DNA from: a phage
Sequence record: M65239.1
Strand: one strand, 5' to 3'
Length of the DNA stretch: 1,285 nucleotides
In this document: one piece after another, positions 315 through 1,269 of the stretch
Numbering within the stretch: the first letter of the stretch is position 1
Layout of the letters: each line of letters starts with the position of its first letter
Notes under the pieces: generated by a model
What the model saw: the letters and a program-made list of their open reading frames with translations, nothing else
What the model was told of the DNA's origin: nothing
Database searches by the model: none
Translations under genes and position numbers: made by a program

Positions 315-811
315 TGCCTCCATCATTACGAAAAGCCGTTGCTGCTGCTATTGGTGGCGGAGCAATTGCTATAGCATCAGTGTTAATCACTGGCCCAAGT
401 GGTAACGATGGTCTGGAAGGTGTCAGCTACATACCATACAAAGATATTGTTGGTGTATGGACTGTATGTCACGGGCATACAGGAAAAGACATCATGCTCG
501 GTAAAACGTATACCAAAGCAGAATGCAAAGCCCTCCTGAATAAAGACCTTGCCACGGTCGCCAGACAAATTAACCCGTACATCAAAGTCGATATACCGGA
601 AACAATGCGCGGCGCTCTTTACTCATTGCTTTACAACGTGGGTGCTGGCAATTTCAGAACATCGACGCTTCTTCGTAAAATAAACCAGGGCGATATCAAA
701 GGCGCATGTGATCAGCTACGTCGCTGGACATATGCTGGCGGTAAGCAATGGAAAGGTCTCATGACTCGTCGTGAGATTGAGCGTGAAATCTGTTTGTGGG
801 GTCAGCAATGA
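314..811 (+). CDS. R: SAR (signal-anchor-release) endolysin, T4-lysozyme-like muramidase family (phage 21 R21-type); 165 aa
   Basis: ORF 314..811 (stop TGA 809-811). The N-terminus has a short basic stretch (LRK) followed by a Gly/Ala-rich weakly hydrophobic segment ([20 protein letters not shown]) typical of a SAR domain. A lysozyme-type catalytic motif is present, with Glu35 (416-418), Asp44 (443-445) and Thr50 (461-463) in GLEG...[13 protein letters not shown]. The start ATG overlaps the S stop (TAATG, 312-316), and a GAGG at 304-307 is a plausible Shine-Dalgarno. Confidence 0.9.
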
Positions 812-1269
812 ACAGAGTAACCGCGATTATCTCCGCTCTGGTTATCTGCATCATCGTCTGCCTGTCATGGGCTGTTAATCATTACCGTGATAACGCCATT
901 ACCTACAAAGCCCAGCGCGACAAAAATGCCAGAGAACTGACGCTGGCGAACCGGGTAATTACTGACATACAGATGCGTCAGCGTGATGTTGCTGCGCTCG
1001 ATGCAAAATACACGAAGGAGTTAGCTGATGCGAAAGCTGAAAATGATGCTCTGCGTGATGATGTTGCCGCTGGTCGTCGTCGGTTGCACATCAAAGCAGT
1101 CTGTCAGTCAGTGCGTGAAGCCACGACTGCCTCCGGCGTGGATAATGCAGCCTCCCCCCGACTGGCAGACACCGCTGAACGGGATTATTTCACCCTCAGA
1201 GAGAGGCTGATCACTATGCAAAAACAACTGGAAGGAACCCAGAAGTATATTAATGAGCAGTGCAGATAG
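808..1269 (+). CDS. Rz: Rz, inner-membrane spanin (i-spanin) subunit; 153 aa
   Basis: ATG at 808 overlaps the R stop (ATGA, 808-811). The N-terminus [23 protein letters not shown] is a type II signal-anchor TMD. The remainder is charged and rich in Ala/Arg/Asp/Glu/Gln, as expected for a periplasmic coiled-coil, with Cys residues in HIKAVCQSV and near the C-terminus (NEQCR). It closely resembles lambda Rz from memory. The ORF track extends the frame to a GTG at 796, but the ATG at 808 is preferred. Confidence 0.85.
1015..1020 (+). promoter_or_regulatory. Shine-Dalgarno (AAGGAG) for embedded Rz1, inside the Rz coding sequence
   Basis: AAGGAG at 1015-1020 is 7 nt upstream of the Rz1 ATG at 1028. 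Confidence 0.55.
1028..1210 (+). CDS. Rz1: Rz1, outer-membrane lipoprotein spanin (o-spanin) subunit; 60 aa precursor, encoded entirely within Rz in the +1 frame
   Basis: ORF 1028..1210 is in frame +1 relative to Rz. The N-terminal signal peptide [20 protein letters not shown] ends in a lipobox (VVGC), with the lipid-modified Cys20 at 1085-1087. The mature 40-residue part is proline-rich (8 Pro) and contains one further Cys. A strong Shine-Dalgarno AAGGAG at 1015-1020 lies 7 nt upstream of the ATG. Confidence 0.85.

Follow-up and report, generated by a model that had tools for sequence, protein, structure and literature searches.

The DNA analysed here, a window of 1,285 nucleotides (i.e. the whole stretch, record M65239.1), almost certainly carries the spanin pair of coliphage 21, namely Rz and Rz1, which belongs to the lambda-type embedded two-component class. 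The identity of the locus, its open reading frames and their signals were observed directly, as were the retention of the embedded frame among homologues and the dual-coding pattern of substitution. The pair was known beforehand and is curated, in Swiss-Prot as well as in the complete phage genome, and the analysis adds no new biology to it: Rz/Rz1 is the textbook case both of complete gene embedding and of the third step of phage lysis, the one directed at the outer membrane. Its sole useful by-product is a flag on residues that are probably erroneous in the protein records derived from this old fragment.

The lysis cassette and its nested spanin genes

The top megablast match of the window among phage records was the complete genome of Escherichia phage 21 (OL657228; 98.6% DNA identity over 7-1285), which at the matching coordinates features an antiholin/holin with a dual start, a SAR endolysin, an i-spanin (808-1269), a ribosome-binding site (1016-1020) and an o-spanin (1028-1210), the locus tags for Rz and Rz1 being CPT_21_69 and CPT_21_70. 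An earlier note, made from the letters of the window, had placed Rz at 808-1269 and a fully embedded Rz1 at 1028-1210 in its +1 frame, and the annotated i- and o-spanin lie exactly there. Four co-directional open reading frames of 71, 165, 153 and 60 aa were found on the + strand, the 60-aa frame being located within the 153-aa one. S21 and R21 directly precede Rz on the same strand, which is the placement of a lysis cassette, and the PHROGs labels across it read holin, endolysin and then 'Rz-like spanin' for both Rz and Rz1. At the protein level, R21 of the window corresponds to Swiss-Prot P27359 and Rz matches Swiss-Prot P27358 exactly. Rz1 matches GenBank QBC41022.1 ('Rz1 [Escherichia phage 21]') exactly and falls in the same cluster as Swiss-Prot P0DOK7, which differs in that it has 62 aa and includes an additional 'FT' that is absent from the Rz1 encoded in the window. 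The features, in window coordinates, are the following.

99-314, + strand: S21 pinholin/antiholin, dual start, 71 aa (Pfam PF04971 Phage_holin_2_1 'Bacteriophage P21 holin S', 8.6e-36; OL657228 annotation)
314-811, + strand: R21 SAR endolysin, 165 aa (Pfam PF00959 Phage_lysozyme, 1.3e-44; PDB 3HDE, 7e-111; OL657228 annotation)
808-811, + strand: ATGA, Rz start codon overlapping the R21 stop codon (read from the sequence; same layout in OL657228)
808-1269, + strand: Rz i-spanin, 153 aa plus stop (Pfam PF03245, 3.9e-53; PHROG 13 'Rz-like spanin', 1.3e-77; i-spanin in OL657228)
817-873, + strand: Rz transmembrane domain (TMD), residues 4-22 (highest 19-residue Kyte-Doolittle window, mean 2.63)
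1015-1020, + strand: Shine-Dalgarno sequence AAGGAG for Rz1, inside Rz codons K70-E71 and 7 nt before the Rz1 ATG (ribosome-binding site at the counterpart of 1016-1020 in OL657228)
1028-1210, + strand: Rz1 o-spanin, 60 aa plus stop, wholly within Rz in the +1 frame (Pfam PF06085 'Lipoprotein Rz1 precursor', 1e-18; PHROG 3198, 3e-28; o-spanin in OL657228)
1028-1084, + strand: Rz1 signal peptide, residues 1-19 (PROSITE PS00013-type rule; the lambda Rz1 signal also spans 1-19, PMC5295617)
1076-1087, + strand: lipobox V-V-G-C, with the lipid-modified Cys20 at 1085-1087 (PROSITE PS00013-type rule)
1102-1104, + strand: Rz Cys99 codon (homotypic intermolecular disulfide in lambda; PMC6139136, PMC5295617)
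1112-1114, + strand: Rz1 Cys29 codon (homotypic intermolecular disulfide in lambda; PMC5295617)
1121-1135, + strand: Rz1 residues 32-36, PRLPP in the window (G1125 and T1128, both silent in Rz at T106 and T107) where lambda and OL657228 have the penta-proline (P5) fusion motif
1132-1158, + strand: modelled linker between the two Rz helices, residues 109-117, on DNA shared with the Rz1 proline-rich region (AlphaFold2 break, pLDDT about 52-65)
1261-1263, + strand: Rz Cys152 codon (homotypic intermolecular disulfide in lambda; PMC5295617)

The ATGA overlap suggests that translation of Rz is coupled to that of R21. The ends of the window, GAATTC at its start and ATCGAT at its finish, are compatible with a restriction fragment that had been cloned. 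With respect to annotation in general, the Rz1 coding sequence is missing from many phage and prophage records, and Rz is named 'endopeptidase' there.

The earlier note had described Rz as a protein with a type II signal anchor and a coiled-coil-like periplasmic domain, and both descriptions are borne out. Residues 4-22 form the one strongly hydrophobic stretch of the protein, and for lambda Rz, whose TMD comprises residues 1-24, the N-in/C-out topology is documented (PMC5295617). In a single-sequence AlphaFold2 model (mean pLDDT 82.6) helices run from residue 2 to 108 and from 118 to 152 with a break at 109-117, and these two long helices and their break match the TMD-CC1-linker-CC2 layout of lambda Rz, a protein that is 96.7% identical and for which COILS and Paircoil2 coiled-coil predictions exist (PMC5295617). 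The i-spanin architecture, i.e. an N-terminal TMD followed by a helical or coiled-coil periplasmic domain, is therefore found in Rz on the basis of hydrophobicity, modelled helices and the PF03245 match. Cys residues occur in Rz at 14, 18, 99 and 152 and in Rz1 at 9, 20 and 29, all at positions identical in lambda, and they include those that form the homotypic disulfides described for lambda (Rz C99 and C152, Rz1 C29), as the earlier note had indicated.

The many GenBank and RefSeq entries called 'endopeptidase Rz' or 'prophage endopeptidase RzpD' favour a different function, in which Rz would cleave peptidoglycan or Lpp links as a periplasmic endopeptidase and not serve as a membrane-fusion subunit. 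We consider this very improbable, as no protease or peptidase domain was found in Rz, its sole significant Pfam match being the Rz lysis family, and as the AlphaFold2 model consists of a single TMD and two long helices. The only sequence similarity to proteins in the PDB is weak and concerns ATP synthase subunit b, likewise a protein with one TMD and a long helix, and the function established in lambda is that of a periplasm-spanning Rz-Rz1 complex engaged in membrane fusion (PMC6139136, PMC5295617). ATP synthase subunit b was itself considered as an Rz homologue (PDB sequence search, E ~4e-4) and rejected, the match being taken as compositional similarity between long helices; the same search found no solved Rz structure, and a scan of NCBIfam gave no model match for Rz or Rz1.

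For Rz1, the earlier note had pointed to a signal peptide with lipobox VVGC, a proline-rich mature region and a strong AAGGAG site of its own inside Rz, and each of these was recovered. The lipoprotein signal is present: residues 10-20 satisfy the PROSITE PS00013 rule, with K/R within the first 7 residues, and the n-region, MRKLK, is followed by a hydrophobic core and then by VVGC; the signal peptide would be cut off by signal peptidase II. Residues +2 and +3 are Thr-Ser, without the Asp that acts as inner-membrane retention signal, so that Rz1 combines the lipobox Cys with the lack of Asp at +2 that characterize an o-spanin lipoprotein. Consistently, Rz1 was called an o-spanin in the annotation of OL657228, for which LipoP and SignalP were used (phage 21 genome paper). 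In lambda, Rz1 G19C and every C20 substitution are lysis-defective (PMC5295617). The mature protein of 41 aa contains 8 Pro.

The embedded frame among related loci

The length of the Rz1 frame was dropped as evidence, because open frames of that size are frequent in shuffled Rz sequences: among 20,000 shuffles of synonymous codons a +1 open reading frame of at least 60 aa was present in 32% (and in 2% when a loose lipobox match was required in addition), and among shuffles of codon order in 15%. Taken by themselves the synonymous shuffles would be compatible with Rz1 being a chance open frame in the +1 register ((1028-808) mod 3 = 1) that is not expressed. To this we assign a negligible probability, for reasons that follow from comparison with related loci.

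The comparison set consisted of 98 related loci, of which 80 came from IMG/VR and the others from phage and E. coli records, with Rz identities from 99% to ~51%. The diverged relatives were drawn from a blastn spread, as a search for related loci with the single Rz protein gave only those with at least 93% identity. A +1 open reading frame with a lipobox Cys is located at the same place in all 61 distinct Rz DNA sequences, down to an Rz identity of ~51%, and it is kept even where the Rz1 sequence is very different, as in HK97, phi80 and the Klebsiella and Edwardsiella phages. The embedded frame, the conservation of which the earlier note had made decisive, is hence retained throughout the homologues compared. 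In the same 61 sequences a +2 open reading frame of at least 35 aa inside Rz was found in none. A purine-rich Shine-Dalgarno sequence precedes Rz1 at the same spacing in most diverged homologues.

The pattern of substitution likewise bears out the claim that dual coding constrains evolution. Nucleotide diversity of Rz at codon positions 1, 2 and 3 was 0.104, 0.092 and 0.189 before the overlap with Rz1, 0.136, 0.105 and 0.142 within it, and 0.153, 0.131 and 0.268 after it, i.e. the usual third-position excess is present outside the overlap and gone inside. This loss is what is expected, since the third positions of Rz are the second positions of Rz1. In the Stx-phage clade, DNA divergence was 0.16-0.22 in the overlap versus 0.33-0.40 upstream, about half, a difference that is confounded by mosaic recombination. 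Mosaic recombination among the relatives is apparent from two loci with 0.00 divergence after the overlap, and it confounds comparisons of divergence region by region.

The conservation in 61 of 61 sequences, the profile matches (for Pfam Rz1 with an E-value of 1e-18) and the codon-position pattern together place the Rz1 frame beyond chance. The Shine-Dalgarno site is conserved in addition, and both missense and nonsense alleles of lambda Rz1 in a disembedded gene are lysis-defective (PMC5295617). A chance frame is thereby ruled out, by conservation, codon-position pattern and lambda genetics, in favour of Rz1 as a genuine embedded gene.

How the two frames share their DNA is best seen in lambda, where mutagenesis of the disembedded genes revealed that silent parts of one protein overlie sensitive parts of the other (PMC5295617). 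The lambda Rz linker, residues 100-115, can be swapped for (Gly-Ser)8 with function kept, and this replaceable segment shares DNA with the highly sensitive proline-rich region of Rz1 (PMC5295617). The layout in the window is alike in that the P5 codons of Rz1 (1121-1135) overlie Rz residues 105-110 (ATTASG), which lie in or adjoin the modelled Rz linker.

Private bases and the PRLPP stretch of Rz1

Between the window and OL657228 there are 11 substitutions and, at 22-55, small indels; the Rz DNA of the two is 99.1% identical, with the same annotated coordinates and four base differences. Four synonymous differences at 361-379 represent a natural haplotype that is present in 44-47 of 61 related loci. 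The remaining differences (628-629, 676, 952-953, 1125 and 1128) set the window apart from all its close relatives, the bases in question being absent from 60-89 related loci. Two of them are swaps of neighbouring bases, namely GC instead of CG at 628-629, which changes FV of R21 to LL (L105/L106), and CG instead of GC at 952-953, which changes Rz A49 to R; a G at 953 occurs in none of the related loci. The sequence of the R21 crystal structure (PDB 3HDE) reads FV rather than LL at this place.

The two other private bases in Rz affect Rz1 alone: G1125 and T1128, in place of C and C in OL657228, are silent in Rz and turn the PPPPP of Rz1 into PRLPP. Both positions are C in OL657228, lambda and ~89 relatives. 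Elsewhere, two loci with Rz identities of 59-74% were the only ones with G1125, and the ECO20 prophage of E. coli was the only one with T1128. The combination was found neither in ~90 related loci nor in the 5,426 E. coli genomes nor in IMG/VR. A 61-mer with the PRLPP bases has no identical copy in the 5,426 complete E. coli genomes (best match 98.4%), and a 27-mer of the RL variant gave zero exact matches in IMG/VR. The counterparts of the motif in relatives read PPAPP, PPDPP or PEPAAW. The penta-proline is a functional motif within the lambda subfamily and does not characterize spanins as a whole.

PRLPP is most likely a read error of the original, 1991-era sequencing. This reading follows from the private nature of the bases, the GC/CG swaps in the same record, the FV of the 3HDE sequence, the correction of errors in the complete-genome paper and the defect of P33L in lambda. 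The genome paper corrects single-base errors of earlier fragments, M65239 included; its Illumina and dideoxy assemblies are identical, and its authors include the laboratory behind the phage 21 lysis-gene studies. In lambda Rz1, lysis is defective with P32Q, P33L, P35H or P36Q/L, and Ala is accepted at position 34 (PMC5295617).

The opposing view would hold that P33R/P34L is a real allele, which arose by mutation in the cloned EcoRI-ClaI fragment or in the phage stock of 1991. Both changes are silent in Rz, as expected of changes that survive selection on Rz, and P34L occurs naturally in the prophages of E. coli ECO20 and ECO21. Moreover, the four differences at 361-379 are genuine natural polymorphisms, which means that errors do not account for everything that sets the clone apart from the modern genome. 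In laboratory culture a spanin defect shows no phenotype without supplementary divalent cations, and a defective Rz1 allele could therefore have persisted unnoticed. We nevertheless regard a real allele as improbable, since G1125 and T1128 together were encountered in none of the related loci and collections searched, since the record contains other private changes, including GC/CG swaps of which one is contradicted by the R21 crystal-structure sequence, since the genome authors state that single-base errors of earlier fragments were corrected and obtained the same assembly by Illumina and dideoxy sequencing, and since lambda P33L is lysis-defective (PMC5295617). If the Arg33 base were real, the Rz1 allele of the window might be impaired, judging from the loss of lysis caused by P33L in lambda. 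Were P33R/P34L real and functional, the 'essential' penta-proline fusion motif would tolerate Arg at position 33, and were it real and impaired, it would constitute a spanin-null allele that is silent in Rz and goes unnoticed without added divalent cations.

Preferring the read error has a practical consequence. Read errors are probably present in the old sequence of the phage 21 lysis region and in the protein entries based on it, at Rz R49, Rz1 R33/L34 and R21 L105/L106, and because one of these would affect a functionally critical Rz1 motif the old records are unfit for inferring tolerated substitutions. The earlier note had named the KPRLPPAW stretch as an example for mapping where substitutions are tolerated in both frames; as such an example it has to be given up, as the stretch is private to the record and probably a sequencing error, with PPPPP in OL657228, lambda and ~89 relatives.

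Spanin function and comparison with known systems

Spanins as a function class connect the inner membrane to the outer one across the periplasm, a link that is needed for disruption of the outer membrane (PMC6139136). In lambda, Rz is a type II inner-membrane protein and Rz1 an outer-membrane lipoprotein (PMC5295617, PMC6139136). Their periplasmic domains bind to each other, and the complex is a heterotetramer with three homotypic disulfides, at Rz C99, Rz C152 and Rz1 C29 (PMC5295617, PMC6139136). The pair is required for outer-membrane disruption, most likely via fusion of both membranes (PMC5295617, PMC6139136). The literature searched yielded no experiments on the Rz/Rz1 pair of phage 21 itself, and topology, lipoylation, disulfides, complex formation and fusion are carried over to it from lambda on the strength of ~95-97% identity.

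By this analogy, Rz would be translated from the ATG that overlaps the endolysin stop codon and would insert in the inner membrane by its N-terminal TMD, N-in/C-out, exposing a periplasmic domain of two helical or coiled-coil segments with a flexible linker. Rz1 would be translated independently, from its own AAGGAG site and in the +1 frame inside Rz. The two proteins would bind via their C-terminal parts into a complex that crosses the periplasm and in which homotypic disulfides at Rz C99, Rz C152 and Rz1 C29 provide covalent stability. Removal of the peptidoglycan meshwork by the pinholin and the SAR endolysin would be followed by collapse of the complex, and this collapse would fuse the inner and outer membranes as the final step of lysis.

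The relationship to lambda, which the earlier note had correctly recognized in calling the pair a lambda-type two-component spanin, is evident from the Pfam and PHROGs families and the OL657228 annotation as well as from the identity over the full length, namely 96.7% for Rz and 95% for Rz1, with 10 DNA differences in 462 nt. The two phages share the lengths of 153 and 60 aa, the +1 embedding at Rz nt 221, the AAGGAG Shine-Dalgarno sequence, the lipobox VVGC with Cys20, and the Cys residues at Rz 99 and 152 and Rz1 29. They differ in Rz (window residue first) by N2S, T45K, R49A, V50A and I54M, and in Rz1 by R2L, R33P and L34P, of which the latter two are probably record errors. The upstream partners, in contrast, are unrelated: phage 21 has the pinholin S21 and the SAR endolysin R21, whereas lambda has the S105 holin and the R transglycosylase.

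The same family, with the same embedded architecture, includes rzpD/rzoD of the DLP12/Qin-type prophages and Rz/Rz1 of the Stx phages, and Rz family members were found in 4,034 of 5,426 complete E. coli genomes. The Stx-phage versions have an Rz that is 66-74% identical and an embedded Rz1 of 61 aa. Rz1 of both the DLP12/Qin-type and the Stx-phage loci has other lipobox residues (VSAC, TAAC) and PPAPP versus PPPPP. Prophage copies of Rz/Rz1 are often cryptic. At a wider scale, the embedded architecture was recorded in 182 of 528 surveyed two-component spanin systems (PMC6139136). P2 lysB/lysC (overlapped), T4 pseT.3/pseT.2 (separated) and T1 gp11 (unimolecular) belong to the same function class as the phage 21 spanin (PMC6139136) but differ from it in gene architecture and are unrelated in sequence.

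An apparent polymorphic patch and other differences from the modern phage 21 genome

Comparison of the window with the complete modern genome of Escherichia phage 21 (OL657228) yields several differences, among them those at 361-379, within the region that encodes the SAR domain. Four synonymous differences occur here in 19 bases, and the bases of the window are those of the majority haplotype of the related prophages (44-47 of the 61 loci), which is not the case for the other differences of the window. Because of this match with the majority haplotype, the old clone and the modern genome seem to be separated at this place by a real polymorphic patch.

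Other differences change the encoded proteins. In the SAR endolysin R21 (314-811), an adjacent GC/CG swap at 628-629, which is shared by no related locus, is the cause of a residue difference: the modern genome and the sequence of the crystal structure (3HDE) both read YSFVYNVGAG, whereas the window encodes an LL version that is also found in Swiss-Prot entry P27359. Likewise, residue 49 of Rz is Arg in the window versus Ala in the modern genome and in lambda as a result of an adjacent CG/GC swap at 952-953, and the G at 953 is absent from all related loci.

The window opens with an EcoRI site (GAATTC) and closes with a ClaI site (ATCGAT, 1280-1285). Its first 6 bases have no match in OL657228, and positions 22-55 differ from that genome by four small indels, namely an insertion of GTTAC and three single-base deletions. 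The window looks like a cloned fragment in which a pyrimidine-rich tract was misread on the gels of the time.

Rz1 variants and spanin annotation

The o-spanin of phage P21 in Swiss-Prot (P0DOK7) has 62 amino acids and, in comparison with Rz1 of the window (1028-1210), an extra 'FT' (PPPDFTWQ) for which there are no codons in the window or in the related loci; R33 and L34 of the window protein are present in this entry too. The Rz1 of an E. coli ECO20 prophage (NZ_CP139891.1, about 1132-1314) carries a natural P34L substitution (KPPLPPAW) together with V16A. In lambda Rz1, position 34 is the sole position of the P5 stretch (residues 32-36) that has been reported to be tolerant (PMC5295617).

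In Salmonella phage 22 (KR296686.1, 867-1250) Rz comprises just 127 amino acids, and the embedded Rz1 frame diverges from its relatives past the PPPVQS motif and stops early (...SHDRSQRHGRWRKPKTYSRC). A deletion or a frameshift in KR296686.1 is the probable cause of the short Rz and the altered Rz1 frame.

In many records of phages and prophages (e.g. lambda PV340536.1), an 'endopeptidase Rz' is listed alone, without a CDS for Rz1. In AP005154, two 'hypothetical proteins' are additionally annotated on the minus strand across the Rz/Rz1 overlap, and these look spurious.

Gene borders and the downstream neighbour

Two further features concern the surroundings of the endolysin and spanin genes:

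99-314 of the window, plus strand: S21 pinholin, with dual-start motif MKSM (Met1 and Met4)
2793-3086 of the phage 21 locus L001, strand opposite to the spanin genes: bor/iss-like outer-membrane lipoprotein gene, downstream of the window's end

The annotation of OL657228 lists two S21 products, the antiholin S21-71 and the holin S21-68, and the stop codon of S overlaps the start codon of R in the sequence TAATG (312-316). The bor/iss-like gene falls outside the window since the latter ends 16 bases past the Rz stop codon. Both phage 21 and lambda carry such a bor/iss-like gene after the spanin genes, on the opposite strand.
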